From Gammaproteobacteria bacterium (GTDB lineage: Bacteria > Pseudomonadota > Gammaproteobacteria > Arenicellales > JAANXG01): a DNA stretch of 64,000 nucleotides. Shown piece after piece: positions 14,760 to 30,756 of the stretch. The first letter of the stretch is position 1. Every line of letters starts with the position of its first letter. The DNA lies in the NCBI GenBank assembly GCA_034520625.1, contig JAXHNI010000008.1:623574-687573 (forward strand), in the 5' to 3' direction. Under the pieces are notes generated by a model. That model was not told the DNA's origin. It saw only the letters and a program-made list of their open reading frames with translations, and did no database searches. The position numbers and the translations under genes were made by a program.

Positions 14760-14778
14760 GCTTCGCGCCGGCGGCGCC

Positions 14779-16035
14779 ATGCAGTACCATGGCGCGCCCT
14801 CCAACCCGACCGAGACAGACGAACTGGTGGATCAATCCCGCTCACCCGCACCCGCTGAAGCACCCCGCCAGGACCTGACCGTCGACGGGACGGAAGTGAC
14901 GCTGCTTGGCACGGCCCATGTCTCGCGGCAGAGCATCGAGGACGTCAAGCAGGCCCTCGCCGACGGCGACCACGATGCAGTCGCCGTCGAGCTGTGTGAA
15001 CCGCGCTACCGGCGCCTCACCGGCACCGACGACTGGAGCCGGACCGACCTGTTCCGGATCATACGGTCCGGCCATGGCGGTCTGGTCGCGGCACAGCTTG
15101 CGTTGTCCGCCTACCAGAAGCGGCTCGCCGATCAGCTCGGTGTGGAGCCGGGCGGGGAGATGCGGGGCGCCATCGAGGCGGCAGCGGAACGGGGACTGCC
15201 GCTCTGGTTCGTTGATCGGGACATCGGCGTTACGCTCAAACGCCTGGTACGCTCGCTCCCCTGGCATCAGCGCCTGATGCTCATCAACGGGCTGCTGGCG
15301 TCGCTGTTTACCCGCGGCAGCGTGGACGAATCCGACATCGAGAGCCTGAAACACGGCGACATACTGGAAAGCACGTTCAGCGAATTCGCAGAGCACTCGC
15401 CGACCCTCTACCGCGTGCTGTTGACCGAGCGCGACCAGTACATGGCCGCGAGTCTTCGCCAGCGCATCGCCCGTGACCGGCCGCACCGGCTGCTGGTGGT
15501 GGTCGGCGCGGGGCATCTCAAGGGCCTCGCCGGGCAACTGCGGGAAAACGCGGACCCACAGGCCACACGCAGTGCCCTGGAACAGATCCCCCCGCGCAGC
15601 GCATTCAGCCGCGCGCTTCCCTGGTTGGTGGTCGGCATCATACTCGCCGGCTTCGTCATCGGGTTCCTCCGCAGCCCCGAGCTCGGCTTGCGGTTGGTGA
15701 CCGACTGGGTTGTGATCAATGGAACTCTCACCGCCGTGGGCGCCCTCATCGCCCGCGCCCACCCGGCAACTGTGGTAACGGCATTCGTCGCCGCTCCACT
15801 CACCTCGTTGAATCCGCTCATCGGAGCGGGCATGGTCACCGCCGCAGTGGAAACCTACTTCCGCAAACCCCGGATGGTGGATTTCGAGAATCTGCGCGAC
15901 CAGGTTACCCGGCTGCGTGGCTGGTACGCCAATCGCGCCACCCGGATCCTGCTGGTGTTCGTGCTCTGCACCGTAGGTTCGGTGGCGGCGACCTATATCG
16001 CGGGATTCCGGATATTCGGGAAGCTGGTCGCCTGA
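14779..16035 (+). CDS. TraB/PrgY-family protein (membrane-anchored C-terminus)
   Basis: VTLLGTAHVSRQSIEDV carries the TraB-family GTAHVS motif. VVVGAGHLKGL is present, and the C-terminus has 4-5 TM segments. The start is taken at MQYHG (14779). Confidence 0.8.
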   Translation: MQYHGAPSNPTETDELVDQSRSPAPAEAPRQDLTVDGTEVTLLGTAHVSRQSIEDVKQALADGDHDAVAVELCEPRYRRLTGTDDWSRTDLFRIIRSGHGGLVAAQLALSAYQKRLADQLGVEPGGEMRGAIEAAAERGLPLWFVDRDIGVTLKRLVRSLPWHQRLMLINGLLASLFTRGSVDESDIESLKHGDILESTFSEFAEHSPTLYRVLLTERDQYMAASLRQRIARDRPHRLLVVVGAGHLKGLAGQLRENADPQATRSALEQIPPRSAFSRALPWLVVGIILAGFVIGFLRSPELGLRLVTDWVVINGTLTAVGALIARAHPATVVTAFVAAPLTSLNPLIGAGMVTAAVETYFRKPRMVDFENLRDQVTRLRGWYANRATRILLVFVLCTVGSVAATYIAGFRIFGKLVA

Positions 16036-16114
16036 CCGGCGCGCCTCGCCTCCTGCGTCTTGGTGGGTATCCCTCCCCCGCAGGCTTGATCGGCCAGGGG
16101 GCTGGCGTCCTACG
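16036..16114. repeat. REP type-1 copies (one degenerate, one good)
   Basis: GATCGGCCAGGGGGCTGGCGTCCTACG lies at 16088-16114, and a degenerate copy CCGGCGCGCCTCGCCTCCTGCG lies at about 16036-16057. Confidence 0.7.
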
Positions 16115-16133
16115 CCGTTTTACGATCGCCGGC

Positions 16134-16727
16134 TCAGTCGATTTCCGCGTGGGTGACAACGGACCCGGCTTCTCGCAAGCGCGCGGCGAGTTGCTCGATA
16201 TCCGCATCGTCCCGGATGGCAGTGACCCGGTAGACGCCTGCGCTGCCAGGACCCTGCACGATCTCGATATGCAACTCGTTGAGGAGTCGGCGTATATCCC
16301 GTTCCGTTGCGCCCGGGTCGAATCGGACCTGTATGGTGGGTGTAGCCGTCGCCTCGCCGGCGGGCTTGTAAGTATCACCGCCCCGCCGTGCATCGATCAA
16401 CAATCCGGCCTGTACAGCGATCACCAGAACCGCCGCGGCAATCGCGGGCCGCCACCACCACCCGGCAGCGACGGCCGACCCGGACTTCCGGGATTCCTCA
16501 TCAATAGTGGATTTCAGGCGGCGCAGTCCGAACTCTCCCGGTGAGCCAAAGTCCTGGGACTTCACGGTCTCGCGCACCTGTCGCAGCATCTCGACGTCGG
16601 CGGCAGCCCGTTCGTTGTCCTGCAGGTAATCGCGCACTCTATTCGCTTCCGCGCCGGTCAGGGTATCGTTGACATACCAGGGAAGCAGCTCTTCCATATC
16701 ACGATCGTCGCTGATGTCTTCTGCCAT
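16134..16727 (-). CDS. putative anti-sigma factor (single-pass membrane protein)
   Basis: Track ORF trimmed to the ATG at 16727, which forms an ATGA overlap with the ECF sigma stop. The N-terminal anti-sigma-like helix is LLPWYVNDTLTGAEANRVRDYL, with the zf-HC2 Cys/His ligands apparently absent. It has one TM segment (WWWRPAIAAAVLVIAVQAGLLI) and a roughly 100-aa periplasmic domain. Confidence 0.65.
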   Translation of the reverse strand: MAEDISDDRDMEELLPWYVNDTLTGAEANRVRDYLQDNERAAADVEMLRQVRETVKSQDFGSPGEFGLRRLKSTIDEESRKSGSAVAAGWWWRPAIAAAVLVIAVQAGLLIDARRGGDTYKPAGEATATPTIQVRFDPGATERDIRRLLNELHIEIVQGPGSAGVYRVTAIRDDADIEQLAARLREAGSVVTHAEID

Positions 16728-17299
16728 CAAATTCGTTCTCCAGTCATCCCCATGCGCTCGAGACAGCGCTTGAGAGATATCCTTGCGTGATACATCCGCG
16801 TCTTCACCGTCCCCGCTGGACAATCGACGATTTCCGCAATCTCCCCGTAGGACAATTCCTCGAAGAACGCCAGATGAACCACCTGGCGGTGCTGGTCGGT
16901 CAATCCCTTGAGACAGGTTCGCAGGGAACGGCGATGCTGGGCGGCTGCCACGACGCGTTCTCCCGAGACTGGAGATGCATCCGGCAGCCCTTCGTCAAGC
17001 TCTTCGTGGCTGCGTTTGCCGCGACGGCGCAGAACGTCCAGCACTTTGTTGTTGGCAATCCCGAGCAGCCAGGTCCGGACTTTCGACCCCCCCTTGAAAC
17101 GGCCCGCGGTGCGCCAGACCACCAGCATTGCTTCGTTGACGATTTCCGCCGCCGCATGGGGATCATCCAGGCGAAACTGCACGAAGGCGTAAACATCTTT
17201 CTCATAGGAACGATAGAACTGTTCCATTGCGGACTCATCTCCCCCGGCAATCGCCGTGAGCAGCCGCCGCGCCGATTGCTCGTTCTCCTCCCGGGGCAT
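16727..17299 (-). CDS. ECF-type RNA polymerase sigma-70 family factor
   Basis: 190 aa starting from the ATG at 17299 within track ORF 16727..17932. Region 2 is DVYAFVQFRLDDPHAAAEIVNEAMLVVWR. Region 4 is LTDQHRQVVHLAFFEELSYGEIAEIVDCPAGTVKTRMYHARISLKRCL. Confidence 0.9.
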   Translation of the reverse strand: MPREENEQSARRLLTAIAGGDESAMEQFYRSYEKDVYAFVQFRLDDPHAAAEIVNEAMLVVWRTAGRFKGGSKVRTWLLGIANNKVLDVLRRRGKRSHEELDEGLPDASPVSGERVVAAAQHRRSLRTCLKGLTDQHRQVVHLAFFEELSYGEIAEIVDCPAGTVKTRMYHARISLKRCLERMGMTGERI

Positions 17300-19032
17300 C
17301 AGCGCGCGTTGAGCCGGCGCAGAGGTGAGGATGCCACCATGATTCCATCTTCCAACGCGCTGACCCGCATGTACACATGTCCCATGCCCGCGAGATGATC
17401 CATGACCAGGCGTGAAATTTCCGCACGGGATCGGTCCGCGGGCACCACCAGTCCCGCCGTGGGATCCCCCCGAACGAGCAGCGTTGAGTTCAGTTGCTCC
17501 CGCTCTTCCGGGTCCGGCTCCTGCTGAAGCTGGGCCGGCGTAAAAAACTCGATGAGGACGTGCGTCGCCGTGGCGGGAATATCCGACCAGGACACTTCCA
17601 GGCCCGTCTCGGTCACGCTGTTGGGCGGCGGGCTCAGCACGGACACCGGAGACGGCAACGCAGCGGCGCTCACCTGGCCCGGCGACACGCCCACGTAGTA
17701 CTGGATCTGAGTCTGGTCCGAAAGCAGCTCCGGCTCCTGAACCCGGAACCGCACGATGTGCCGCCCCGTGCCGGTCGCCGTGAAGGTACGGGAAATCTGT
17801 ACCGTGTTCTGCCCCACCACGAAGTTGGAGTACAGCTGGAGCGGCCGGAAAAAAAGCTGGTTTCCGCCGCCTTCGGCGACCTCCCAGGTACCTCGCAGCA
17901 GGCCACCGGGCCCGTCGAAGCGCAGGTCGCACACAACATGCACCGGGTCTCCCTCCTGCACGATCTTTACCCGCGAGCCGTCATGGAAACGGCATTTCAT
18001 CGCCGAGATGGAGAAATCCGCCTGGCCGGGCCCGGTCAGATTCACGGGCACCCGCGCGATGAATCGGTTGCCGAAGTCATCGCGAAGTGTACGCTCGAGG
18101 ATCAGGCCACCCCCCTGCTGCCTGGCCCGGAGCAGCTGCGACGAGGACAGCTGGATGGTTTCGTTGAAAACGGCCTGGCCGGATCGAATGCCGGAGCGGG
18201 TCAGGGGCCGATTGCCCTGCCCGATCGCCGAACCCGACCGGGTCCTGACGACATAACGGTCCGACCGCAGGGTCAGGTTCGAGCCGCTGCCTACCTGTTC
18301 CACCGTACCGGTCCAGGTCACTGGCACCGGCGTCGAGGCCCCGAGAAAAGACGCACTGCTGGTGGAACTCGAGCCATTGAACGCCACCAGCCGGGACAGG
18401 TTCAGGTCGATGACGCCGGACGCCTGGGCGGACAGCCCCAGCGCAACACTGTCGGTCTTGGGGCCGGTGGCCGAAAACTGCGCCTGCCAGGTCCGCTGGT
18501 AAACCAATCCGGACACCGCCTGGGCAGCCACGCTTTCCAGGGCACCGCGAAGCCGGGCCGGAGAATAATCCACTATGGGTATCGGGACCCGGGCATCCAG
18601 GATGACCTGTGCAATGGCGTCACCAACGGCATTCGGAATCTGCACGGATTCGGGCACCGGGACGACGCCATTACAGGGGACGCCCGTGGTGCGATTGGCA
18701 TTGTTGACAGCCAGCACAGTGCCGCCCAACCGGAACTGCCCGCTCTGGGAGGTGGCCGGGGCCTGCTCGTTGTCGCAGTCCGGCTGCCAGGTCGGCGAGA
18801 ACGACGACGGCGAAAAGCTGACGCTGGGCACCGTACCGCGGAACAGGTCCCGGAAGGTGGGGCTGGGGGGCAGGGTCGCGGGATCCGGCCGGATGGTCGG
18901 GAAATCCACGCGGGCATTGATGCTCACGGAGCCCGGAGAGACATTCAGGCCCTGTATCGCCCACACGGGCCCGGCCGCCGCCAACAACAGCCCGCCCAGC
19001 AGTTTTCCAATCCTTTCAAGGTTCATGATCAT
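17299..19032 (-). CDS. 577-aa secreted hypothetical protein
   Basis: The signal peptide is MIMNLERIGKLLGGLLLAAAGPVWA and a GGGAGA RBS is present. Its stop overlaps the sigma start (ATGA). The composition is Ser/Thr/Gly/Val-rich and beta-type. I recognise no family. The antisense ORF 17494..19257 is Arg-rich junk. Confidence 0.7.
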   Translation of the reverse strand: MIMNLERIGKLLGGLLLAAAGPVWAIQGLNVSPGSVSINARVDFPTIRPDPATLPPSPTFRDLFRGTVPSVSFSPSSFSPTWQPDCDNEQAPATSQSGQFRLGGTVLAVNNANRTTGVPCNGVVPVPESVQIPNAVGDAIAQVILDARVPIPIVDYSPARLRGALESVAAQAVSGLVYQRTWQAQFSATGPKTDSVALGLSAQASGVIDLNLSRLVAFNGSSSTSSASFLGASTPVPVTWTGTVEQVGSGSNLTLRSDRYVVRTRSGSAIGQGNRPLTRSGIRSGQAVFNETIQLSSSQLLRARQQGGGLILERTLRDDFGNRFIARVPVNLTGPGQADFSISAMKCRFHDGSRVKIVQEGDPVHVVCDLRFDGPGGLLRGTWEVAEGGGNQLFFRPLQLYSNFVVGQNTVQISRTFTATGTGRHIVRFRVQEPELLSDQTQIQYYVGVSPGQVSAAALPSPVSVLSPPPNSVTETGLEVSWSDIPATATHVLIEFFTPAQLQQEPDPEEREQLNSTLLVRGDPTAGLVVPADRSRAEISRLVMDHLAGMGHVYMRVSALEDGIMVASSPLRRLNAR

Positions 19033-19047
19033 CGCTCGAATCTCCCG

Positions 19048-21150
19048 CTAGTAATTCCGGCCCGTCGACACCGGCCAGTCCACTGTTACACCAACGAACA
19101 CCTGGGACGGCGTGCTGTCGTTCCCGGAATCCAGCCGGTCGTTGAAGTTCTGGAAATCACCTCGCAGCCAGAGCGACATGCCGGGCCGATTCTCCCGCGG
19201 CTGCACTACCTGCCAGTCAATCTCGAAACTCAAGAAGGCATTGTCGCTGGAGAATGAGTCGTCAGTGGTGCGGTCGAGGTTCATGCTGTAGTTCAGCCGC
19301 CCGGTGAGCTTCTCCGGGACAAGCACCGCGTCCAGGCTGACGCCCCACAAGCTGGTCCGGGTGATGGTGCCATCGCTCTCGAATATCCGGTTGTACTGGT
19401 ACTGCAGCCCGGCGTACAGGCGCCGGGCGATAGACAGGTTCACGCCGACATCACTGATCTCGTTGCGCAGATCCGGTGTGCGCCGGGTCAGGTCATCTTC
19501 GAAACCCAGGGTATGGCCCACATACCAGTTCCACTCCGGGTAATTGAAGCTGGCCGACACCCGGGCGGAGCGGGTCCGGCGATCAAGGGGACTGCCGCTG
19601 AAGTCCGGCGGTAACCGGGTCTGCTCCTGCCGCCCGTACTGTAACCCCGTGCTCAGCGACGGCCTGCCGTACCACGGCGTCAGCAAGTTGCCCTCGTCAT
19701 CGTATTCCGGGCGCGGCGACCAGGAGGCGTAAAACTGCACGAGGTCGGTATCCAGCCTAGGCAGATCGGGCGCCTCGTCGACGTTGTCGTGCTCTTTGCC
19801 GGCGGACAGGGACAGGTTCAACCCGCCCCAGCGAAAATCACTGTAAACCCGCCGCAGTTCCTTGTCAGAAGGCAGAAAGCCGTTGGCGATGCTCCGGAAG
19901 AACAGGCCGGTCTGCCGGTATTCCGCGCCGATTGTCAGGTCGGCCGGCGAGTCGCCGAGCATCGTACCCTGCATCGGCACCACTTCCGCGAGCAGCATCC
20001 GGGCATCGTCGTCGATCTTGTCAAGATCCCCGTTGATGCCGTCAAAGTCGTAGTCCGTCCTGGCGTATTCGCCCCGCAAACGCAGCTTGTCATCCAGCAG
20101 CCGGGACTCTGCGGAGATGCTGGCCGCGTCCCCTTCGGCAAGCACATCACGGCCGGCGAGAGACGTGCCAAAATCATCATTGCCCTTTCCGGACAGAGCC
20201 GCCGCCGATAGCGTGAGCACACGGCTATTGTCGAAGGGTCTGACCGAAGCCACGCCACCCATGACGCGGGAGCGGACCTCTTCCACGCCCAGGATGTCCC
20301 GGCGTCCGATCGTCGGCTCGGCACGCATGGCGAACGCCGTGCCCGTAGCCCGGCCGTCCACCATGGAGCGGGTCGCCGAGACGCCGCGCCGGTAGAAGTC
20401 ATCAATGATCAGGCTGTCGCTCTCCACGGCGTGGTGGCCAAGATTGATCTCGGAAACCTGGTCGCTGCGGGTAAACAGGTACTCCCCGATATCCACTTCA
20501 TCGCCGTCCCGTGGATCGTCGAGGGTGTTTCTCAGGTCAACACCGAGGCTGCTGTAGAGAAGCGATGCATCGGCTTCCACTTCCCAGTCGTCCTTTGCCA
20601 ACCGTCCCTGAATCCTCGCACTGCCGTCACCCTGGAAATCATCGTCGTCGGCGACGGCCTGCCCTGCGGTTCCACCAGCGGTTGCGCCCACACTCTGCCC
20701 GGACGACCGCACGGCTTCGTCATGCTCGACCCGGTAACCCAGCTCCACCGTGGTTCGCGCATCCAGGGACTTCTCAGCGAAGCCAGTCGGACTGCCGGTC
20801 TGCAGGGTCCACAGGCCGCGTTCGAGGATCTGGCCGTCCGGGGTATATTCCACCAGCCGGACGCGATGGGACCCGGGTTCCAGGGGCTGGGGCGGCGTCA
20901 CGACGATCACGAAACCGCCGGGTGATTCCTCGAGACGGACCACTTCACTGACTTCGATATCGTTGATTTCGAGCGCCAGCCACTGCAGGGTTTCGACGGT
21001 GACCTCGGACGGCAACTGGATGCGAATGTCCGACGTCGGCTGCCGTACCTCCTCTCCCACCTCAGCGAGTGTCGGCTGCCACTGCGCCTGGGCGCTCGCC
21101 GCGACCAGATACAGCGGCAATGCCATGGCCCCTCTGATACGACTCCACAT
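19048..21150 (-). CDS. predicted outer-membrane beta-barrel protein with an N-terminal Ig-like domain
   Basis: 700 aa with a strong RBS (GGGAGGTGGAG) and the signal peptide MWSRIRGAMALPLYLVAASAQA. The N-terminal roughly 110 aa look like a beta-sandwich. The rest shows alternating hydrophobic and polar strands (AFLSFEIDWQV, MSLWLRGDF, VFVGVTVDW) and ends in Tyr. The C-terminal OMP signature is imperfect. Confidence 0.55.
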   Translation of the reverse strand: MWSRIRGAMALPLYLVAASAQAQWQPTLAEVGEEVRQPTSDIRIQLPSEVTVETLQWLALEINDIEVSEVVRLEESPGGFVIVVTPPQPLEPGSHRVRLVEYTPDGQILERGLWTLQTGSPTGFAEKSLDARTTVELGYRVEHDEAVRSSGQSVGATAGGTAGQAVADDDDFQGDGSARIQGRLAKDDWEVEADASLLYSSLGVDLRNTLDDPRDGDEVDIGEYLFTRSDQVSEINLGHHAVESDSLIIDDFYRRGVSATRSMVDGRATGTAFAMRAEPTIGRRDILGVEEVRSRVMGGVASVRPFDNSRVLTLSAAALSGKGNDDFGTSLAGRDVLAEGDAASISAESRLLDDKLRLRGEYARTDYDFDGINGDLDKIDDDARMLLAEVVPMQGTMLGDSPADLTIGAEYRQTGLFFRSIANGFLPSDKELRRVYSDFRWGGLNLSLSAGKEHDNVDEAPDLPRLDTDLVQFYASWSPRPEYDDEGNLLTPWYGRPSLSTGLQYGRQEQTRLPPDFSGSPLDRRTRSARVSASFNYPEWNWYVGHTLGFEDDLTRRTPDLRNEISDVGVNLSIARRLYAGLQYQYNRIFESDGTITRTSLWGVSLDAVLVPEKLTGRLNYSMNLDRTTDDSFSSDNAFLSFEIDWQVVQPRENRPGMSLWLRGDFQNFNDRLDSGNDSTPSQVFVGVTVDWPVSTGRNY

Positions 21151-21338
21151 GGCTCCACCTCCCGAATACTTTATGATTGTATGGCTACTGTACCCGGATA
21201 TTGATCCGGTATCAGGTTTCGAGGCGCGACATCACTGCCGTACTCCAGGAATCTCCGGTACACACCCCTGCCAATATCGCGCTCCGCCGCTGAAGCGGCC
21301 CGGCGTTCTTCATCCGATTCCGGTTGTTCCTGCCCTGG

Positions 21339-21364
21339 GTCGTGACTTCACCCGCCGCGGTTCA
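21339..21364 (-). promoter_or_regulatory. candidate ECF-type promoter TGAACC-N15-ACGAC upstream of the barrel/secreted/sigma/anti-sigma operon
   Basis: The minus strand reads GGAACTTGAACC-GCGGCGGGTGAAGTC-ACGAC. The motif and spacing are identical to the sites at 23695-23720 and 26768-26793. It lies about 190 nt upstream of the ATG at 21150. Confidence 0.45.
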
Positions 21365-21417
21365 AGTTCCTTTCCACGGTGTCCTTGCCGCGGCTCGTCG
21401 TCCGCGAGGACGATGAC

Positions 21418-23583
21418 CTAGCGACCGAGCGGTTCGTCGGGACCCCCCTCCCCGTCACCCGGATGACCGCCGGGTCCGGCTATTTTTTCTTCCAGCTCCT
21501 TGCGGAAACGCTCCGCATCCGCTTCGCTCAGCGGCCGCTCCCCGCTTCCGATGTCCTCCGGCGACGGGTTGCCCACCAGCTGGTGCTCGGGCAGGATCAG
21601 CCGCGGTCCATCCGGGTCCGGCGTCGCGCCGTCTGGACCGGGATTCACGTAGTCATCGTTGGGGTTCTTGATACCGAAATCGATGCGCCGCCCGATCCCA
21701 ATCTCATACAGCCAGCGCGCCCAGGCAGCCTCCGCCTCCGTCGGTGCGTTGGGGTCGGGATTCCCGCTCGGGTCCAGCGGGCCCGGGCCGCGGATTCTGT
21801 GATGACTGCCCCGAACACGATCCTGGACGACCCGCCCTTCGGCATTGGTCCTGATTACGCGCCGATAATTGAGCTGGTCATTGGGTCCCCAGTTTTCCTG
21901 TCGTGTTTCGGTTGACCCATCCTTGAAGGTTGTCCGTGTCGTGTACACGGTCGTACCGTTGGCGCCCGGCTCCTCGGTGGTGGTCTTGTCAGTCACCGGG
22001 TCGGTGCTGGCCGCACCGCCCATTGCTCCCCTGGGGGAAGGGGGCGTTACCGGTGGACGCCCGGCGCTGCCGCTGCTGGCCGGCCCCGCATTGGCGGGCG
22101 GGCGCCGCGGGGTGGTCGCCTCGGGCATGAAACCCATGCCGCCGAAGATGTCATTCGCGTCGTCGCCGTTGAGCTCGTCCAGCAGCTCGAAAAACTTGTC
22201 ATCCTCTTCACGGGAGCCTCCCAGACCGGTATCCGGCATCGGGCTACTCCCATCACCGAGGCCCTCGATACCCGGCAGCGCGGCGAGGTCTGTCGCCGCG
22301 TCCTCGATCCCGCCCAGATCCTCCAGATGCGCCATCCCGCTGTCCGCAAACCTGCTTTCCGAAACCCGGTCGGCCTGCACGGCGGGCAGATCGGCGACCC
22401 GATCCTGGACCGCCGGGAGTGTCTGCCGGTCTGACGGCGAGCCGCCCGACGCCAACGCCGGCCGCTCGACATCCTCGTCGGCAATATACTGGCGCGTCCC
22501 CAGCGGGCCGTCCGGCGCATCGCCCGTCAGATCCGCCTCGGGAACTTGTACGCCGGGATTTTTATTGCGCACCGCGCTGCCGAACAGCTTGCTGAGATCG
22601 TCGCGTTCTGCGGTCTGCGGACCACCGGACACCGGCACGCAGGCCAGATTGTTGCGCTCGTTCGCCTCCGGAATCTGTCCGTCGCTGTCCGCCACCGCGC
22701 ACCAGTACAGGCCGGTGGGTCCCGCCAGGTTGCCGGGCACGTTCATTGCCATCGACAGGCGCTCGCTCTGGCCCCCCGCAGGGACCCGCATCGCCCACTG
22801 GTCCTTCTCCAACAACATCCCGCGGCCACCCATCGCCATCACCACGGTACGCGTCAGGTCCCGGTCCACCAGCGCCAACCGCACCCGGTAGCGCTCGTTC
22901 CTCGGCACCCGGGACTGCCCCCGGTTGGGAATCAACACCTCCACCATCTGGGTCTCGCCCGGGCGCAGCACCCCGGCCCGGATTTCCGCCGCCAGGTCCA
23001 CGTCCGACGCCTGGACCGGCGCCCCCGGCTCGGCGCAGCCCTTTAGAGTGAGCCGCTGCCGGTCGCCGTCCACATCGCACTGCAGCACGTAGTCCGGGCC
23101 CGGCTGCAGATGACTCAAGCGGAATCGGTATTCCCGCGCCGTGCGCGAGTACGCCTGCAGCGACTGGCGCTGGCCGCCTGCCTCCAGCCGGCAGTCCAGT
23201 CCACCGTCCCGCAGATTCTCACCGCGCACATGAATCTCCGAGCCCCGGCCCAGGCAGCCGGGAGGCTGAATGTGATCGATGCGGCCCTGGCGGGTCGGCG
23301 GCTGCTTGCCGGGACTGTCCGGCTCCGCCGGCTGGATCGGCTTGGCCGCCGGCTGGTCACAGTGCTGCTTGTACAGCTTTTCGTACTTCGGCCTGTCCTG
23401 CTTGTTGAAATTCGGGGATTTGATCAGCGCCGGGTATTGCTTGCAGAAAACATCCACCTCCTGCTGCGACAATCCACCGCCCTCCATATGACCCAGATAA
23501 TGCGCGGAAAACACAGCACCCGACGGCATCAGCCAGAATGCCAAAGCCGCACCCGCAACCCGGGAAAGTCCGATGCTTCTCAT
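21418..23583 (-). CDS. secreted CARDB-domain protein, paralog A (721 aa)
   Basis: Signal peptide MRSIGLSRVAGAALAFWLMPSGAVFSA. A CARDB-like block ends in GQIPEANERNNLACV (the E-x-N-E-x-N-N signature). The N-terminal roughly 330 aa are paralogous to the next gene. The C-terminal half is Pro/Gly/Asp-rich with no family I recognise. Confidence 0.8.
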   Translation of the reverse strand: MRSIGLSRVAGAALAFWLMPSGAVFSAHYLGHMEGGGLSQQEVDVFCKQYPALIKSPNFNKQDRPKYEKLYKQHCDQPAAKPIQPAEPDSPGKQPPTRQGRIDHIQPPGCLGRGSEIHVRGENLRDGGLDCRLEAGGQRQSLQAYSRTAREYRFRLSHLQPGPDYVLQCDVDGDRQRLTLKGCAEPGAPVQASDVDLAAEIRAGVLRPGETQMVEVLIPNRGQSRVPRNERYRVRLALVDRDLTRTVVMAMGGRGMLLEKDQWAMRVPAGGQSERLSMAMNVPGNLAGPTGLYWCAVADSDGQIPEANERNNLACVPVSGGPQTAERDDLSKLFGSAVRNKNPGVQVPEADLTGDAPDGPLGTRQYIADEDVERPALASGGSPSDRQTLPAVQDRVADLPAVQADRVSESRFADSGMAHLEDLGGIEDAATDLAALPGIEGLGDGSSPMPDTGLGGSREEDDKFFELLDELNGDDANDIFGGMGFMPEATTPRRPPANAGPASSGSAGRPPVTPPSPRGAMGGAASTDPVTDKTTTEEPGANGTTVYTTRTTFKDGSTETRQENWGPNDQLNYRRVIRTNAEGRVVQDRVRGSHHRIRGPGPLDPSGNPDPNAPTEAEAAWARWLYEIGIGRRIDFGIKNPNDDYVNPGPDGATPDPDGPRLILPEHQLVGNPSPEDIGSGERPLSEADAERFRKELEEKIAGPGGHPGDGEGGPDEPLGR

Positions 23584-23694
23584 CACCACCCTGCCCTCCC
23601 GCCGGGCCGGCCCCGGCTTCCCAACCCGGAACCCTCCGGCAAATATCGTTCAACCTCACGGCGTCCCGGCCGTTATCCAGTGGTCAATCGATAA

Positions 23695-23720
23695 GTCGTC
23701 GCGCAGCCTTTTGCGGTTCA
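23695..23720 (-). promoter_or_regulatory. candidate ECF-type promoter TGAACC-N15-ACGAC upstream of CARDB paralog A
   Basis: The minus strand reads TTTGAACC-GCAAAAGGCTGCGCG-ACGAC. It lies about 112-137 nt upstream of the ATG at 23583. Confidence 0.45.
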
Positions 23721-23772
23721 AAGTTTACAGTAAAGGTCCGGAATACCGGTTCCCGTCAATACCTGCCCGTTT

Positions 23773-26655
23773 CTAGCCGCCCCGGGATGCCGGATAATCG
23801 CGTGTTTCGCGCAGCGATCGCCGGTTGTTCGACTCATCACTCTCCAGAATCTTTCCTTGCGCATCCACCGTCACGCCGATCCAGCCACCGCGAATCACCG
23901 AAGATTCTCCTCCACCGCATTCCAGGCAGCTCCAGACCAGCTCCGGGCTGCGGCGAACCGAGGTAGTCAGTCTCAAAGAGCGGCCCGGCGCCATGCCCAC
24001 AATGGGCAGAGTTACATCAGCCACGAAGAGTTTCATTCCTGAGTACTCCTCACGCGAGAATCTTGCCATGACCTCGGTTGCCAACGATGGACTGACACCG
24101 CGATTGGCCACCGTCACATGCAGGTACTTCGGTCCCAGATCACCTTCTTCAGTGCCGTACTCCAGCTCCACGGACTCCACCACCAGGTCAGCCAGGCCGC
24201 TTTCCTCCCGAACCCGCTCGTCCTGCGCCGCTGCTTCCCGCGTACGCGCATCCGGAGCCGCACCGGACATGTCGGGCGGAAACTCCCAGGGCCGGAAACT
24301 GCTGGTTCCCGGCAGGTACTGCGGTGTCAGCACGGCATACAGCATCAGCGGCACGCTGCCGTCAGGTGCAAACTCGTCCGCGGGAATATCGGCGGAATCA
24401 CGCGCCACACACAGCAACCGCGCCGACTGGTTGCGACCGAGCGTCAGGGTCCCGGGTATCGCTCCAAGGGGGGACCGGTGACCCGACGTATTCACGCAGT
24501 CCACACCTCGGACTACGCCCCATTCATAAAGAATATCGAACGTAAGCGCAGCATCGCGGCGGTTGGCGTTGTAGTCAATGCGATACATGCCCCAGTCATC
24601 GCCGCCCCGTTCCTCGACCACCTGCAGGATCAGGTTCTCCATCTCCCGATTGTCTCCCGCGCCACCGGTCCTGCCGGCTACGACATAACCATCGCTGGAA
24701 GGCGCGCCCACGTCCCGGACAAGCACATTGTTACCGGGTCTCGGGTCACCGGCGAAAGGCGGCGCCCCGATGGTAGCCCGGAGCACAGCACGGCGGCTGG
24801 TGGGCAGCCGATAGTCGGTCCAATATGACTTGAGGCGGGTTTCGCGGAAATCGGCGATACGCACGGTATCGGACCACACCACCTCCCCTTCCTGCCCAGC
24901 TCTCGAGTTAGGCGACCCGAGCACCCGAAGCTCGAGTGGCACGGTGGCCGAGGGATCGATGTTTCCGGGAACATCGACGGCCCGGACGAGAATGAGAATC
25001 CGGCCGCGGTCCGGTCCGCGCGGCGTAGGCCGCAACTCGTAGACCTCGAGATCCATTCCCTCAACATTTGCAGTGGTGCCTTCCCAGAACACCATGGAAA
25101 CGAGTGAATTCGATGCGGCGAACCGAACCAGGCTCTCCAACCAGTCGGGCTCGCCGCCATGGTTGACTTCCACCGCATTGGTTTCACCGTCCGGATCGTC
25201 CACGACGGCTGCATCCATCGTGCCGTTGTCCACCATCACACAGCCTTTCACAAAATACGTCCGGCCGGCGACCATGGCCGATCTCCGTACTTCGTCGAGC
25301 TCGTAGGAACCTCCATGCCTTCCCGACCCCGCGAAGAATCCGTCGGGTCCGCCATCTTCCCACGACGCAGGACCGCCGGCGCAGTCATTCGGCGGAAATG
25401 GCGACCCTTCACGGAAACGCAGATGCAAGCCGGTAACGGGATGGCCCGCCACTTGCCCCGGCAAAGCGTCCCATGAGACCGTCATCGGCTCCTCCGGATC
25501 CACATCCACCGGCCGCATGCCGTAGGAGGCGTTCACTTTGAGGGTCATGTCCAGACTGGCCAGTCTTGCGCCGGCCGGCGCCGTCGTGTCTCTCAGCGCA
25601 TCGGGATCTACCTGCACGTCCACATTCGGCTTGCGAACGGCACTGCCAAACACGCCGGTCAGATCCGACCGGGCAACGATACCGTCGTCGCCTGCGGCGG
25701 CGACGCATACCAGATTATTGCCTTCGTTGACCTCCGGGATCCCATCATCGATGTCAGCAAAGGCACACCAGAACAGGGTTTTGCCTTCCGGCAGCCTTCC
25801 GGGCACGGCCATGGTCATTGAAACGCGCTCGGAGCCACCTGGTTCCGCGACCCGCGTCACCCACTGCCGCCTGTGGGCCAGGACACCACCCGACGCCGGG
25901 GACAGAACTGAGCTCATCCGCATCCCCGTCCGGCCGAGGTCACGGTCCACCAGCGCCAACACCAGGCGGTGCCGGCGGTTGCCCGCCCCGCCGCGGCCCC
26001 GGTTCGCGACCGAAATCTGAATCGTCTGGGTCTCCCCCGCCCGCAGCTGCCCAACACGTATCTCCGGCACCAGATCGATCTCTTCCGCCTGATCGGCTGT
26101 ACCCGGGCAGGCCTGCAACCGGAGTCCATTTCGATCTCCCGCCACTTCGCATGCGATCCGGTAGCCCGGGCCGGTCAGCAGTTCGTCCAGCCTGAATCTA
26201 TACTCTTGCTCCGTACGCGAGTAGGCCTGCAGGGAGAGGCGCTGGCCGTTGGACTCCAGCTGGCAGTTCAGGGCGCCGCGTCGAAGGTCCCGGCCCCGTA
26301 CCCGGATCTCCGCGCCCCGTTCAGCGCACGACGGGCCGTCAATGCGGTCGATCCGACCCGCGGCCGCTTCAGGTTTGTCAGGCAAATCCGGCTGGGCCGG
26401 CTGCGCGGGCGCAGGCTCCGGCGGCTTCAGACAGTGCTGCTTGTACAGCTCTTCGTACTTCGGCCTGTCCTGCTCGTTGAAATTCGGAGATTTGATCAGC
26501 GCCGGGTATTGTTTGCAGAAAGCATCCACCTCCTGCTGCGACAATCCGCCGCCCTCCATATGACCCAGATAATGCGCGGAAAACACAGCACCCGACGGAA
26601 CCAGCCAGAACGCCAAAGCCGCGCCCGCAACCCGGAAAAGTCCACTGCTTCTCAT
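23773..26655 (-). CDS. secreted multi-CARDB-domain protein, paralog B (960 aa)
   Basis: Track ORF 23773..26715 trimmed to the ATG at 26655, by analogy with paralog A (MRSSGLFRVAGAALAFWLVPSGAVFSA). CARDB-type signatures are IPEVNEGNNLVCV, PRPGNNVLVRDV and the C-terminal ILESDESNNRRSL. Confidence 0.8.
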   Translation of the reverse strand: MRSSGLFRVAGAALAFWLVPSGAVFSAHYLGHMEGGGLSQQEVDAFCKQYPALIKSPNFNEQDRPKYEELYKQHCLKPPEPAPAQPAQPDLPDKPEAAAGRIDRIDGPSCAERGAEIRVRGRDLRRGALNCQLESNGQRLSLQAYSRTEQEYRFRLDELLTGPGYRIACEVAGDRNGLRLQACPGTADQAEEIDLVPEIRVGQLRAGETQTIQISVANRGRGGAGNRRHRLVLALVDRDLGRTGMRMSSVLSPASGGVLAHRRQWVTRVAEPGGSERVSMTMAVPGRLPEGKTLFWCAFADIDDGIPEVNEGNNLVCVAAAGDDGIVARSDLTGVFGSAVRKPNVDVQVDPDALRDTTAPAGARLASLDMTLKVNASYGMRPVDVDPEEPMTVSWDALPGQVAGHPVTGLHLRFREGSPFPPNDCAGGPASWEDGGPDGFFAGSGRHGGSYELDEVRRSAMVAGRTYFVKGCVMVDNGTMDAAVVDDPDGETNAVEVNHGGEPDWLESLVRFAASNSLVSMVFWEGTTANVEGMDLEVYELRPTPRGPDRGRILILVRAVDVPGNIDPSATVPLELRVLGSPNSRAGQEGEVVWSDTVRIADFRETRLKSYWTDYRLPTSRRAVLRATIGAPPFAGDPRPGNNVLVRDVGAPSSDGYVVAGRTGGAGDNREMENLILQVVEERGGDDWGMYRIDYNANRRDAALTFDILYEWGVVRGVDCVNTSGHRSPLGAIPGTLTLGRNQSARLLCVARDSADIPADEFAPDGSVPLMLYAVLTPQYLPGTSSFRPWEFPPDMSGAAPDARTREAAAQDERVREESGLADLVVESVELEYGTEEGDLGPKYLHVTVANRGVSPSLATEVMARFSREEYSGMKLFVADVTLPIVGMAPGRSLRLTTSVRRSPELVWSCLECGGGESSVIRGGWIGVTVDAQGKILESDESNNRRSLRETRDYPASRGG

Positions 26656-26767
26656 TACCACCCTGCCCTCCCCCCCGGACCGGCCCGGTTTTCCCAACCC
26701 GGCGCCCTCCGGCAATTATCGATCAACCTCACGGCATCCCGGCCGTTATCCAGTAGTCAATCGATAT

Positions 26768-26793
26768 GTCGTCGTACGAGTTGTTCCGGTTCA
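26768..26793 (-). promoter_or_regulatory. candidate ECF-type promoter TGAACC-N15-ACGAC upstream of CARDB paralog B
   Basis: The minus strand reads ATTGAACC-GGAACAACTCGTACG-ACGAC. It is part of the duplicated leader shared with paralog A. Confidence 0.45.
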
Positions 26794-26933
26794 ATATTAC
26801 ACCGGTATCATCCAAGGCGCACCCGCAAGGCGCCAACGCGTCGAGAGCGCCCGGGAATGCAGTAATCCGGGAATTGGCCTGTACGCGGGCATCAACATGA
26901 GGCAATGTGGATAACCATTAACCGGCAGCGAAA

Positions 26934-27818
26934 ATGATATCCATCTGGACACGTTCGGGCTTCATGCTTGCCTGCATCGCAATACCGGCCGCGGCGACCT
27001 TCGGCCAGCAGACCATCGTTCAGCCCCTGTACCAGCTTCCGGTGGAATCGATGACTCCGCAGCATAATCCGGAGCGCGCCCCGCCGACCGACCAGCACGA
27101 ACCGGCGCAACAGGCTCCGGTTACGACCCACGGGCTCAACTTCGAGCCCGAAGCTCCGGCCGAGCCAGACAAACCCCTGAGCGGCACGACGGACACTGAT
27201 CAGAAAATCGAAACAGAGCTGCCAACCGAATCGGATCAACGGGGCAGGCCTTCACCCCGGCGGCAGCACAGCGAGCCTCCGCCCATCGACACCAACGCCG
27301 AGCTGCTGGTGCGGGCCCTGGACTGGCTGCTGGAAGAACGCGTGGAGTTGATCAACATGAGCCTGGCCGGCCCGGCCAACCGTCTGCTACAGCATGCCGT
27401 TGAAACGGCTGTCGAATCCGGCGTACTAATTGTCTCCGCAGCCGGCAACGGCAATCCCGCGTTCCCGGCCGCCTACCCGGGTGTCGTGGCGGTGACCGCG
27501 GTGGACAGCCGGGGCCGCGTCTACCGCCAGGCCAATCGTGGGGACTATGTCGATTTCGCCGCGCCCGGCGTGGATGTTTTCCTCGCCGCGCCCTACAACC
27601 GGGGCAAGTACTACTCCGGCACTTCCTTCGCCACACCGTTCGTAACTGCCGCACTGGCAGTCCTCATATCGCGCCATCCCGAGGCTGGCTCCGACGCGCT
27701 TCTCCGCCAGCTATCGAACACAGCCCGGGACCTCGGCGATCCCGGCCGGGATCCCACCTTCGGCTGGGGGCTCGTCCAGGTGCCGGCCGACTGCACCAGC
27801 CTTGCCGCGCGTGAATGA
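26934..27818 (+). CDS. secreted S8 (subtilisin)-like protein lacking recognisable Asp and His catalytic motifs
   Basis: 294 aa. It has the signal peptide MISIWTRSGFMLACIAIPAAATFG and a roughly 100-aa Pro/Glu/Gln-rich linker. It then carries S8 blocks: LINMSLAG (oxyanion Asn), VSAAGNG, AVTAVD and YYSGTSFATPFVTAALAVL (catalytic Ser). I found no D-[ST]-G or H-G-T block upstream. Confidence 0.75.
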   Translation: MISIWTRSGFMLACIAIPAAATFGQQTIVQPLYQLPVESMTPQHNPERAPPTDQHEPAQQAPVTTHGLNFEPEAPAEPDKPLSGTTDTDQKIETELPTESDQRGRPSPRRQHSEPPPIDTNAELLVRALDWLLEERVELINMSLAGPANRLLQHAVETAVESGVLIVSAAGNGNPAFPAAYPGVVAVTAVDSRGRVYRQANRGDYVDFAAPGVDVFLAAPYNRGKYYSGTSFATPFVTAALAVLISRHPEAGSDALLRQLSNTARDLGDPGRDPTFGWGLVQVPADCTSLAARE

Positions 27819-27883
27819 CCCTGTATCGAGCGCATGACGACCACAGGGGTAGAGGTCGCCCCCGGTTTACCGGCGCGAAGGTA

Positions 27884-28004
27884 GTAGGAGGCGAGCCCTC
27901 TCGCCGATCAAGGCCTTGATGCAAGCGGTAATCGGCCAGGGGGCTGGCCTCCTGGTCGCATCCCCCCACAGACCTGATCGGCTACAGGGGGCTGGACTCC
28001 TACG
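27884..28004. repeat. REP type-1 cluster (3 copies)
   Basis: GTAGGAGGCGAGCCCTCTCGCCGAT at 27884-27908, AATCGGCCAGGGGGCTGGCCTCCTGG at 27930-27956, and GATCGGCTACAGGGGGCTGGACTCCTACG at 27976-28004. Confidence 0.85.
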
Positions 28005-28005
28005 C

Positions 28006-30756
28006 CTACGCCGCCTTGCGGTCGCCCGCGGCGAGCTGGCGCAGGACGTACTGCAGGATGCCGCCGTGGTTGTAGTATTCCCACTCCTTCGGGGTGTCGA
28101 TGCGTACCCGCGCCTGGAACGTCCGCTCGCCGTCGTCGCCGCGCACCTTGACTGTGACTTCCTTGACGCCGGATTCCAGCCCCTCGATGTCGAACTCCTC
28201 CTCGCCGCTGAGCGCTTCGCGGTCGCCGCTGCTCTGGAACTGCAGCGGCAGGACCCCCATGCCGATGAGGTTGGAGCGGTGAATGCGTTCGTAGGATTCG
28301 GCGATCACGGCGCGCACGCCGAGCAGACGGGTACCCTTGGCGGCCCAGTCCCGCGAGGAGCCGGTGCCATACTCCTTGCCGGCGATCACGATCAGCGGGA
28401 CGCCGTCCTCCTGGTACTGCATGGAGGCGTCGTAGATGGGCATCTGTTCGCCATCGGGCAGATGGCGGGTCCAGCCGCCCTCCGTCCCCGGCGCCATCTC
28501 GTTGCGCAGACGGATGTTGGCGAAGGTACCGCGCATCATGACCTCGTGGTTGCCGCGCCGCGAGCCGTAGGAGTTGAACTGGCCCTGGGATACGCCGTTG
28601 TCCAGCAGGTACTTGCCCGCCGGGGAGTCCGCGGCGATGGATCCCGCCGGCGAGATATGATCGGTGGTAATGGAGTCGCCGACCTTCACCAGCACCCGGG
28701 CGCCCTTGATCTCCTCCAAGGCCGCCGGCTGCCGCGGCATGCCGTCGAAGAACGGCGGCTTGCGGATATAGGTCGAATCGTCGTCCCAGTCGAACAAGGC
28801 CCCCTCCGGGGTCTCGATTTTCCGCCAGCGCTCGTCACCCTTGAACACGTCAGCGTACTTAGATTGAAACATCTCCCGGTCGATGGTGCTGTCGACCACT
28901 TTATCGATATCCGCCTTGGCCGGCCAGATGTCCTTCATGTAGATATCGTTGCCGTCTTTATCCTGAGCAATGGGATCCCTGTAGAGGTCGATATTGGTGG
29001 TGCCGGCGATGGCATAGGCCACCACCAGCGGCGGCGAGGCCAGGAAGTTCATCTTGACGTCAGGGTGAATCCGGCCCTCGAAGTTGCGGTTGCCGGACAG
29101 CACCGAGCAGGCCACCAGCTCGCCGTCGTGGATGGCATCGCTGATCTCCTCCCGCAGGGGGCCAGAGTTGCCGATGCAGGTGGTACAGCCGTAGCCGACA
29201 ATATCGAAGCCGAGCGCCTCCAGCGGATCCAGCAAATCGGATTTTTCGAGATACTCGGTCACTACCTGAGAGCCCGGCGCCAGGGAGGTCTTGACCCAGG
29301 GCTTTACCTTGATGCCCCGGTCCATGGCGTTCTTCGCCAGCAGGCCGGCGCCCACGATGACATCGGGATTCGAAGTGTTGGTGCAGCTGGTGATCGCCGC
29401 GATGACCACGTCGCCGTCGGTCAGGGTGAAGGTCTCCCCGTCCATGGTGACCTCCCGCGCGCCATTGAGGTGCGACGCCTGGCCGTCCACGGCGGTGGAC
29501 CCGCCTTCGTCCTCGAACCGGTCCTTGTCGGCCTCCTTGCGCGCCCCGTCGCTGCGCTCGATCTGCATGTCGTGGATATGGCGGCCGATAACGTCCCGGG
29601 ATTCACTCAGGGCGATGCGATCCTGGGGCCGCTTCGGACCGGCCACGGACGGTACGACATCGCCTAGGTCCAGCTCCAGCACATCGGTGTAATTCGCTTC
29701 CACCGCGCCGGTTTCCCGGAACATGCCCTGCCGGCGGGCGTAGGCCTCCACCAGCGCGATCTGCTCTTCACTGCGCCCGGTCTGGTCCAGGTAATCCAGC
29801 GTGGCCTGGTCTACCGGGAATATGCCGACCGTGGCGCCGTACTCGGGGCACATGTTGGAGATCGTGGCCTGGTCGGCGATGGAAAGATGATCCAGGCCGT
29901 CGCCGAAAAACTCGACAAAGCTGCCCACCACACCCTTTTCGCGCAGCATCTGGACCACCGTCAGCACCAGGTCCGTGGCGGTGGCGCCTTCCGCCAGCTC
30001 ACCCACGAGCCGGAAACCGATGACCTGGGGAATGAGCATGGGTATCGGCTGGCCCAGCATGGCGGCCTCCGCCTCGATGCCGCCGACGCCCCAGCCCAGG
30101 ACGCCGACGCCGTTGATCATGGTGGTATGGGAATCCGTGCCCACCAGGGTGTCGGGGTAGGCCTGCCGGGTCCCGTCCACGGATTTGTTGAAGACCACCT
30201 GGGCCAGGTACTCGAGGTTCACCTGGTGCACGATCCCGGTGGCGGGCGGCACCACGCTGAAATTCTTGAATGCCCCCTGGCCCCAGCGCAGGAACTGGTA
30301 GCGCTCCTTGTTGCGCTTGTACTCCAGGGCCGCGTTCAGGTCGAGCGCCTTGCCGCTGCCGTAATGGTCCACCATGACCGAGTGATCGATCACCAGGTCC
30401 GCCTGGGACAGCGGATTGATCAGGTCCGGATCAGCGTCCAGTTTCTTCATCGCCTCGCGCATCGTCGCCAGGTCCACCACCGCCGGCACCCCGGTGAAGT
30501 CCTGCAGCAGCACCCGCGCCGGGGTGAAGGCAATCTCCCGGCTCGGCTCAGCCTTGGGATCCCAGCCCGCCAGGGCCTCGATGTCCTCGCGCGTCACGCT
30601 CTCCCCGTCCTCGTGCCGGAGCAGGTTCTCCAGGAGAATTTTCAGGGAGTACGGCAGCTTGTCCAGGTCAAACTGCTCGGACAGGACATCCAGGGCATGG
30701 ATTTCGTAGGACTTGCCGCCGACTTCCAGGGTAGTGCGCGCGTCGAAACTGTTCAT
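28006..30756 (-). CDS. acnA: aconitate hydratase A
   Basis: 916 aa. The N-terminus is [18 protein letters not shown]. The Fe-S cluster Cys motifs [10 protein letters not shown] and [10 protein letters not shown] are present, and the length is typical of AcnA. Confidence 0.95.

Follow-up and report, generated by a model that had tools for sequence, protein, structure and literature searches.

The window analyzed here is a stretch of 64,000 nucleotides (positions 623,574 to 687,573 of the forward strand of contig JAXHNI010000008.1, assembly GCA_034520625.1) from the metagenome-assembled genome (MAG) of a gammaproteobacterium placed in the Arenicellales. It holds a cluster of mostly minus-strand genes, among them that of a sigma factor of the extracytoplasmic function (ECF) type, and four copies of a bipartite motif, TTGAACC-N16-CGAC-N2-A, that we interpret as predicted promoters of this sigma factor. 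Genes and sites are collected in Table 1.

The gene cluster

Four genes, encoding a large barrel protein, a secreted protein of 577 residues (p577), the sigma factor and a putative anti-sigma factor, follow one another with junctions of 16 nt or overlapping start and stop codons, and because of these junctions we read them as one operon. Upstream lie the genes of two secreted proteins, CARDB-A and CARDB-B, which are paralogous over their N-terminal ~360 aa (56% identical), and beyond them a divergent gene for an S8 (subtilisin-like) peptidase. A gene for a LysR-type regulator is found near the cluster in the window and in three of the related loci described below (L010, L012 and L017).

The sigma protein contains only sigma-2 and sigma-4 domains (Pfam Sigma70_r2, r4_2 and Sigma70_ECF) and matches the NCBIfam sigma70-ECF superfamily (TIGR02937) above cut-off, at 98 bits. 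It falls below the cut-offs of the curated NCBIfam families (PRK11924.3-1, 164.7 versus 258; PRK12515, 144.9 versus 236; SigK, PRK09646, 109.9 versus 226). Its nearest solved structure by sequence is Mycobacterium tuberculosis SigK (E = 1.9e-22), and the text of the ECF reclassification paper makes no mention of an S8 or CARDB context (PMC7826278). The anti-sigma assignment is suggested by a match to NCBIfam NF052375, 'anti-sigma factor' (E = 4e-7, below cut-off); the gene is kept directly after the sigma gene across loci, and one homologue has a weak zf-HC2 match.

The barrel protein has no Pfam or NCBIfam match. Its Foldseek matches in the PDB are FimD/PapC ushers, MtrB (TM 0.40) and other large outer membrane barrels, none of them specific, and those of p577 are generic Ig-like or macroglobulin-like folds only. 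The S8 peptidase of the window, at 294 aa, is much shorter than its relatives of 538-556 aa. A tblastn comparison with the orthologues of L009 and L010 (538 aa) reveals an in-frame gap of ~270 aa that takes out the catalytic Asp (IGLIDTG) and His (EHGTA); signal peptide, Asn and Ser (GTSFATP) are kept. This copy is probably a remnant without activity, or else an artefact of assembly. The truncation may matter if S8 acts on the anti-sigma factor or on the CARDB proteins.

Table 1. Genes and motif sites of the cluster (window coordinates unless a related locus is named; bits, position weight matrix score; aa, amino acids; ORF, open reading frame; pLDDT, predicted local distance difference test)
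Feature	Coordinates	Strand	Description
S8 (subtilisin-like) peptidase gene	26934..27818	+	divergent; 294 aa; Pfam Peptidase_S8, profile positions 95-288 only
P(CARDB-B)	26768..26793	-	TGAACC GGAACAACTCGTACG ACGAC (26793-26768); exact match; 112 nt upstream of CARDB-B ATG (26655); 30.0 bits
CARDB-B 5' leader	26656..26767	-	duplicated at 23584-23694; carries conserved ~50-nt element ACTnnATAACGGCCGGGAnGCCGTnAGGTTGAnCGAT
CARDB-B	26655-23773	-	960 aa, secreted; C-terminal CARDB domain (Pfam CARDB, E = 9e-8)
P(CARDB-A)	23695..23720	-	TGAACC GCAAAAGGCTGCGCG ACGAC (23720-23695); within 189-nt CARDB-B/CARDB-A gap; 111 nt upstream of ATG 23583; 24.3 bits
CARDB-A	23583-21418	-	721 aa, secreted; no Pfam match
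P(barrel)	21339..21364	-	TGAACC GCGGCGGGTGAAGTC ACGAC (21364-21339); within 267-nt CARDB-A/barrel gap; 188 nt upstream of ATG 21150; 30.1 bits
Barrel gene	21150-19048	-	700 aa; signal peptide, N-terminal beta-sandwich, large beta-barrel (AlphaFold2 mean pLDDT 82.3)
Intragenic site	19258..19283	-	TGAACC TCGACCGCACCACTG ACGAC (19283-19258); barrel codons 623-632, 3' end of ORF; 226 nt upstream of p577 ATG (19032); 20.3 bits
p577	19032-17299	-	577 aa, secreted, multi-domain beta-sandwich (AlphaFold2 pLDDT 67.5)
ECF sigma gene	17299-16727	-	190 aa; ATG overlaps p577 stop codon (TGATG)
Anti-sigma gene	16727-16134	-	197 aa, one transmembrane segment; start overlaps sigma stop codon
Motif copy inside the sigma ORF of related loci	L001:14044-14076; L002:17525-17557; L003:17643-17675; L013:14025-14057; L011:4668-4700		also in L005 and L008

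Four copies of a predicted ECF-type promoter motif

The preliminary description of this DNA had placed the motif TGAACC-N15-ACGAC in front of all three minus-strand transcription units of the cluster. The coordinates and letters of those three sites proved exact, but the count did not hold: an exact search of the window returned four matches, the additional one lying inside the barrel ORF. All four are on the coding strand and within 7.5 kb. The chance expectation is 0.02 matches per window, and none of 100 dinucleotide shuffles reached four, in keeping with the earlier judgement that such a match would very rarely arise by accident. When one mismatch was permitted, just two further, unrelated matches appeared, which is the chance level. 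We also scanned the whole window with a position weight matrix (PWM) that had been trained without P(CARDB-A) and without the intragenic site. These two still reached the scores shown in Table 1, and the next best match anywhere had 13.3 bits, so within the window the motif is restricted to the cluster rather than occurring at similar density elsewhere. That next best match (15964-15996, plus strand; CTCTGCACC...GGCGACCTAT) lies just past the anti-sigma gene on the opposite strand, within the 3' end of a TraB-like ORF (14746-16035), and is probably due to chance.

The consensus is longer than first described. Common to all four window sites are a T at or near the position before TGAACC and, three bases past CGAC, an A, and alignment of 17 sites located 5' of genes gave tTTGAACCg-N15-(a/g)CGAC-N2-A, with the trailing A in 15 of the 17; this yields TTGAACC-N16-CGAC-N2-A. 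Written from its cores, the motif is AAC-N17-CGAC, with AAC in the -35 element and, separated from it by 17 nt, CGAC in the -10 element. AAC in the -35 element, a group-specific CG-type -10 element and a spacer of 14-17 bp are typical of ECF promoters, and the autoregulatory sigX promoter of Bacillus subtilis has a CGAC -10 (PMC5758882); the ECF-type architecture proposed at the outset fits these criteria. Nothing specific on TGAACC or GAACC...CGAC as an ECF motif came up in a search of the literature.

Other promoter classes were searched for as well. Housekeeping sigma-70-like promoters (TTGACA-N16-18-TATAAT-like hexamers) are absent from the three intergenic regions, and the only match between 15500 and 27500 lies inside the barrel ORF (19868-19840). 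The sigma-54 pattern TGGCAC-N5-TTGC gave only matches with up to two mismatches, mostly scattered in coding sequence, and the sole one in a leader (23653) lacks the GG. Terminator-like matches on the minus strand all fell inside signal-peptide coding regions and were disregarded.

Could these sites be chance matches, or functionless leftovers carried along by duplication of the CARDB genes? The A and B sites do lie in a duplicated segment and, as the preliminary description had stated, are not independent: their leaders are identical at 98 of 112 positions, and the first 360 nt of the two coding sequences at 303/374. Within this segment, however, the half-sites of both copies are intact, whereas the 15-nt spacer has decayed to 7/15 identical positions and the 60 nt upstream are unrelated. 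Half-sites kept and spacer sequence free is, on this comparison, a promoter-like footprint. The barrel-operon site has unrelated flanks, as had been claimed for it, and so does the intragenic site. Together with the rarity of the motif in shuffled sequence and its abundance in related loci (below), these observations effectively refute an origin by chance or by passive duplication.

The leaders downstream of the motif

From the positions of the sites, the predicted 5' untranslated regions would measure ~105 nt (CARDB-B), ~105 nt (CARDB-A), ~181 nt (barrel) and ~219 nt (p577). The long 5' leaders noted earlier are therefore a feature of the window; in other loci the motif stands anywhere between ~20 and 240 nt from the start codon, so that such lengths do not hold generally.

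Directly downstream of the promoter the two CARDB leaders share a conserved element of ~50 nt, ACTATACAACGGCCGGGAnGCCGTnAGGTTGAACGATAGATGCCG (26690-26767 and 23618-23694, minus strand). The same element follows the motif in four related loci (L009:1951-2022, L018:440-517, L010:2076-2153 and L011:98-170). It includes a small hairpin, CGGC/GCCG, that is invariant across the leaders and shows no compensatory changes. A structured RNA in the duplicated leader was considered and rejected: the sequence is kept in six leaders, but alignments of 4-6 sequences contained 0-1 compensatory pairs, the fold energy is ordinary (z = -0.94), and an Rfam scan of 15000-28500 at E <= 1 returned only a chance match to a snoRNA. 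The element may instead provide a second regulatory layer, for example as an operator, an RNA stabiliser or a small-RNA target. A small ORF in the barrel leader (MKNAGPLQRR..., from 21313 downwards) was also discarded; compared by eye with L009, it has mostly first-position changes, a non-coding pattern.

The conserved leader and its hairpin raise the question of whether the motif itself acts in RNA, as a processing or binding site within a longer transcript that begins further upstream, rather than as a promoter in DNA. The half-sites are not complementary to each other, and a spacer whose sequence is free and whose length is fixed points to a constraint of DNA geometry. With no Rfam match, and with neither covariation nor unusual stability in the leader, we regard an element acting at the RNA level as very improbable.

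The motif accompanies the sigma gene in related loci

Homologues of the barrel protein (n = 33) are all hypothetical proteins from MAGs or metagenomes of Gammaproteobacteria or Arenicellales. We compared the window with 18 related loci (L001-L018, 241 kb), for some analyses with the first 15 of them (212 kb). By tblastn they share a conserved module, barrel-p577-sigma-anti-sigma with the S8 peptidase adjoining, in which p577 always follows the barrel gene. The motif accompanies the sigma gene between loci with barrel proteins of only 30-42% identity.

In the 212 kb, GAACC-N16-CGAC occurs 30 times, as against 3.2 +/- 1.9 in shuffled sequence (maximum 9), and the version with a leading T, TGAACC-N16-CGAC, 25 times as against 0.6. 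The spacing of 16 nt is specific, because the same half-sites at other spacings (10-23) give only 0-11 matches. To these counts we add one that avoids circularity, because sites of these loci had served to train the PWM: the 11-base pattern derived from the window, TGAACC-N16-CGAC-N2-A, has 28 matches in the 18 loci, where ~0.1 would be expected from base composition. Every locus of a sigma-bearing lineage has at least one, and L012, L014 and L015 have none. The latter three keep the barrel gene and p577; in the stretch available they have no sigma, anti-sigma or S8 gene. L012 is syntenic with 16134-28006 of the window (aconitase ... CARDB-barrel-p577 ... LysR) apart from the missing S8, sigma and anti-sigma genes, and on its gene content is in effect a 'deletion mutant' that arose naturally and lacks the module's regulatory part.

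Nearly all 28 copies lie 5' of, and co-oriented with, barrel, S8 or secreted CARDB- or PKD-like genes. Equivalents of P(barrel), which in the window stands at the head of the barrel-p577-sigma-anti-sigma operon, precede the barrel gene in L005, L009, L010, L011, L016 and L018, and in L002 and L004 they precede the gene of a secreted 540-559-aa protein that itself precedes the barrel gene. P(CARDB-B), whose extended form tatTGAACC...CGACatA spans 26796-26764, has homologous sites before CARDB or barrel genes in L009, L010, L017 and L018, those before CARDB genes being in L009, L017 and L018. Further sites precede the S8 gene (L003), a p577 paralogue (L008) and, in L001, five separate secreted PKD-like or CARDB-like genes on both strands. 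One occurrence of GAACC...CGAC without the T (L002, 6711-6735; 13.9 bits; probable coding region) was excluded from the site set as ambiguous. Judged by gene position and orientation, this distribution is the pattern expected of a sigma factor regulon.

Several of these loci also appear to record rearrangement of the module. In L001 the sites at 9657-9681 and 6622-6646 (minus strand) have identical spacers and flanks (gggtTTGAACCCCCGACCGTTTTCCGCCGACtc) with different secreted-protein genes downstream, which makes them copies of one duplicated putative promoter, as sites A and B of the window are. Of the proteins targeted in L001, three are PKD-like paralogues. The order of the CARDB paralogues is inverted in L017 (2-5496, A-like then B-like) relative to the window (21418-26655, B then A). 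In L010, L011 and L016, S8 and barrel are not separated by a CARDB gene, and the barrel promoter and leader of L010 are homologous to the CARDB-B promoter and leader of the window; it would seem, then, that insertion placed the CARDB genes downstream of what was ancestrally a barrel promoter close to S8. In L006 (1777-3980) two tyrosine-recombinase (integrase-like) genes follow the barrel gene at the expected position of p577, which suggests insertion of a mobile element into the module.

A second barrel-p577-sigma-anti-sigma module, a paralogue of the first, appears to be present in the source MAG itself (L016; same protein as U5R46_18915), with p577 62% and sigma 64% identical to those of the window. 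Its barrel gene, split by frameshifts in the Logan contig, has the motif both upstream (25.8 bits) and at the intragenic position. The second module raises the possibility of cross-talk, or of a bin of mixed strains.

These comparisons bear on whether the motif is read by some other factor: the paralogous ECF sigma, another ECF sigma of overlapping specificity, or a transcription factor such as the LysR-type neighbour. A second sigma with the same motif in the same MAG would allow this, overlapping promoter recognition among ECF sigmas is documented (PMC5758882), and the LysR gene recurs near the cluster. The motif, however, accompanies the local sigma gene in every locus that has one and is absent from L012, which retains the LysR neighbour and has lost sigma, anti-sigma and S8. 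Its asymmetric, bipartite form with a strictly fixed 16-nt spacer is, moreover, typical of a sigma factor rather than of the box of a dimeric LysR protein. We consider recognition by another factor quite unlikely.

Synonymous-site constraint on a promoter-like site in the barrel gene

The fourth site encodes the peptide M-N-L-D-R-T-T-D-D-S (ATG AAC CTC ... GAC GAC TCA). In a codon alignment the pattern xTG-AAC-Cnn...GAC-GAC-TCA is kept in at least five deep lineages that share 42% protein identity or less. The codon before AAC is ATG, GTG, TTG or CTG, always xTG, for three different amino acids (M, V, L). After AAC stands a codon (CTC, CTG, CTT, CGG, CGT, CAG or CAC) that begins with C for four amino acids (L, Q, R, H), L002 being the sole exception. 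In the site-bearing lineages the two Asp codons are always GAC-GAC, and the Ser that follows is TCA in 10/10 (L003 has TTA), in genes of which only 3-11% of Ser codons end in A. This TCA provides the trailing A of the consensus, which was itself derived from intergenic sites. Given the codon usage of each gene, these synonymous choices have a joint probability of 0.002-0.025 per lineage, and in the five-lineage alignment the site is the best 11-codon window of the gene for invariant third positions (5/11, against a mean of 6.5%).

Where the sigma gene is missing, the site tends to be broken. L012, whose barrel protein is 59% identical to that of the window, reads ATG AGC ... GAT GAC TCG, with changes at three key positions, and L015 has lost the site too.

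A plainer account would be that the intragenic match is a by-product of a conserved peptide (x-N-x...D-D-S) and GC-rich codon bias, with no promoter involved. The N and DD residues are indeed conserved, AAC and GAC are preferred codons (P = 0.53-0.94 and 0.37-0.86), and L014 retains TGAACC-N16-CGAC without a nearby sigma gene. Against this, genomes with 68-78% GC at third codon positions have rare codons fixed precisely where the motif requires them (TCA or TTA supplies the trailing A, and TTG the T of TTGAAC), and at two positions the motif bases are constant while the amino acids differ. The low probability of the synonymous choices in each of the lineages, the peak of third-position invariance and the decay of the site in the sigma-less L012 and L015 also speak against it, and we think this explanation unlikely.

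The embedded site may also be the more ancient one. Because the distant lineages L001, L007 and L013 have it and lack a site upstream of the barrel gene, the intragenic promoter would be the older of the two; comparison of these loci suggests that it is probably the older route of sigma autoregulation and the upstream site a feature of the lineage of the window and some others.

A second coding-embedded copy is seen inside the sigma ORF of seven related loci (Table 1), in the form TTG AAC GAT ... GCC GAC ATA/GTA/ACA, that is, TTGAACG-N16-CGAC-N2-A. Here, too, rare codons preserve the A at the third position, although the residue encoded differs (I, V or T). The copy is missing from the window (17150-17190) and from L010. 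As a promoter it would transcribe the anti-sigma gene (and S8) without the sigma gene.

A predicted autoregulatory circuit

We interpret the four TTGAACC-N16-CGAC-N2-A sites as predicted promoters of the ECF sigma factor of the cluster (16727-17299), or of a close paralogue of the same specificity, with a probability of roughly 85%. According to this model, the membrane-bound anti-sigma factor (16134-16727) would hold the sigma factor at the membrane until an envelope signal releases it. The signal is presumably an envelope or cell-surface cue, possibly with involvement of the linked S8 peptidase. The released sigma would form a holoenzyme that initiates transcription, at each of the four sites, within a few bases downstream of CGAC. 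Transcription of the genes for the secreted proteins CARDB-B and CARDB-A would start from two of them, that of barrel-p577-sigma-anti-sigma from the site upstream of the barrel gene, and that of p577-sigma-anti-sigma from the one within the last 230 nt of the barrel ORF. The latter two sites would constitute positive autoregulation through two nested promoters, buffered by co-expression of the anti-sigma factor. Autoregulation of the sigma operon and co-regulation of the CARDB genes had been proposed from the first three sites; that the motif tracks the sigma gene and is missing where the sigma gene is missing supports both as inferences.

Several observations weigh against this interpretation or limit its reach. 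All the sequences come from MAGs or metagenomic contigs, the lineages are not fully independent of one another, and the PWM was trained on sites of the same loci. Since the paralogous module of the same MAG, with its 64%-identical sigma, bears the same motif, the pairing of sigma factors with sites is ambiguous and cross-talk is possible. Autoregulation is also not shared by the whole family: the sigma genes of L002 and L003 are separate from the barrel operon and have no copy of the motif immediately before them. Finally, L014, which has no sigma gene within 10 kb, keeps TGAACC-N16-CGAC intragenically, without the trailing A; because this core is kept there, conservation of the intragenic site must come partly from the protein sequence (N...DD).

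The kind of system, an autoregulated ECF sigma/anti-sigma circuit, is already well known, and the current understanding of ECF sigma factors is not overturned. What is new is the fourth, coding-embedded site, the extended consensus and the cross-genome regulon of an uncharacterised module. A broader claim joins these elements: an undescribed Arenicellales-like ECF unit, barrel-p577-sigma-anti-sigma-S8, with a TTGAACC-N16-CGACnnA regulon of secreted CARDB/PKD-type surface proteins; an ancestral autoregulatory promoter in the barrel coding sequence that dictates codons across lineages of ~40% identity; and a sigma-ORF site that uncouples anti-sigma from sigma in many lineages. Taken as a whole, this we put forward tentatively, at slightly less than an even chance.

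The analysis offers a precise promoter consensus and a first predicted regulon for an uncharacterised ECF sigma factor that is conserved in uncultured marine and sediment Gammaproteobacteria. In the window the predicted regulon comprises two CARDB proteins, a large outer membrane barrel and a multi-Ig-like protein; relatives add an S8 peptidase and secreted proteins of the PKD-like kind. The motif could be used to annotate regulons in genomes of the group and in the design of orthogonal sigma/promoter pairs. A promoter embedded in a gene would place a dual constraint on the coding sequence, with rare codons kept by promoter function, and is relevant to how synonymous-site conservation is read.

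Comparison with known systems

The linkage of an outer membrane barrel gene to an ECF sigma and a membrane anti-sigma recalls FecI/FecR/FecA. Unlike FecA, the barrel protein has no match to a TonB-dependent receptor, a plug or a signalling domain, and the anti-sigma factor has no FecR match (Pfam). The barrel model is of usher or MtrB size with a beta-sandwich at its N-terminus, and it scores lower against TonB-dependent receptors than against ushers and MtrB. A FecIRA-type system is ruled out by these missing TonB-receptor and FecR features.

SigK-RskA of M. tuberculosis (ECF19; neighbours ECF18 and ECF214) is like the window system in its sigma factor, for which it provides the closest structure, and in the single-pass anti-sigma encoded downstream. 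It differs in that the window sigma scores well below the family cut-offs, the anti-sigma factor has no RskA Pfam match and the gene context is one of barrel, p577 and S8.

Among autoregulated ECF sigma/anti-sigma operons with AAC (-35) / CGx (-10) promoters, that of B. subtilis sigma-X is the nearest known case. Its promoter has the form TGTAAC-N17-CGAC, with a separation of 17 nt. Like the sites of the window, it is bipartite, with AAC in the -35 element and CGAC in the -10 element (PMC5758882). The window sites differ in their -35 element, TTGAACC rather than TGTAAC, and in the extra conserved A three bases after CGAC. Further differences are the gammaproteobacterial host, the position of the sigma gene, third in an operon behind an outer membrane barrel and a beta-sandwich protein, and the promoter copy embedded in coding sequence.

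For this last feature the nearest parallel is the rpoE-rseABC operon of Escherichia coli, where a sigma-E-dependent promoter, rseA P3, lies within the rpoE coding region. Both systems would have an ECF-type promoter in an upstream ORF of a sigma/anti-sigma operon and nested sigma-dependent transcripts. Unlike rseA P3, the embedded promoter of the window sits two genes upstream of the sigma gene, in the barrel ORF, and its transcripts would still include that gene. A site inside the sigma ORF, as in rpoE, belongs to other lineages only (L001, L002, L003, L005, L008, L011 and L013), not to the window. In its overall plan, with sites before the operon of the sigma factor itself and before a small set of envelope or secreted genes, and with a membrane anti-sigma factor predicted to be co-transcribed, the system resembles autoregulated ECF operons.

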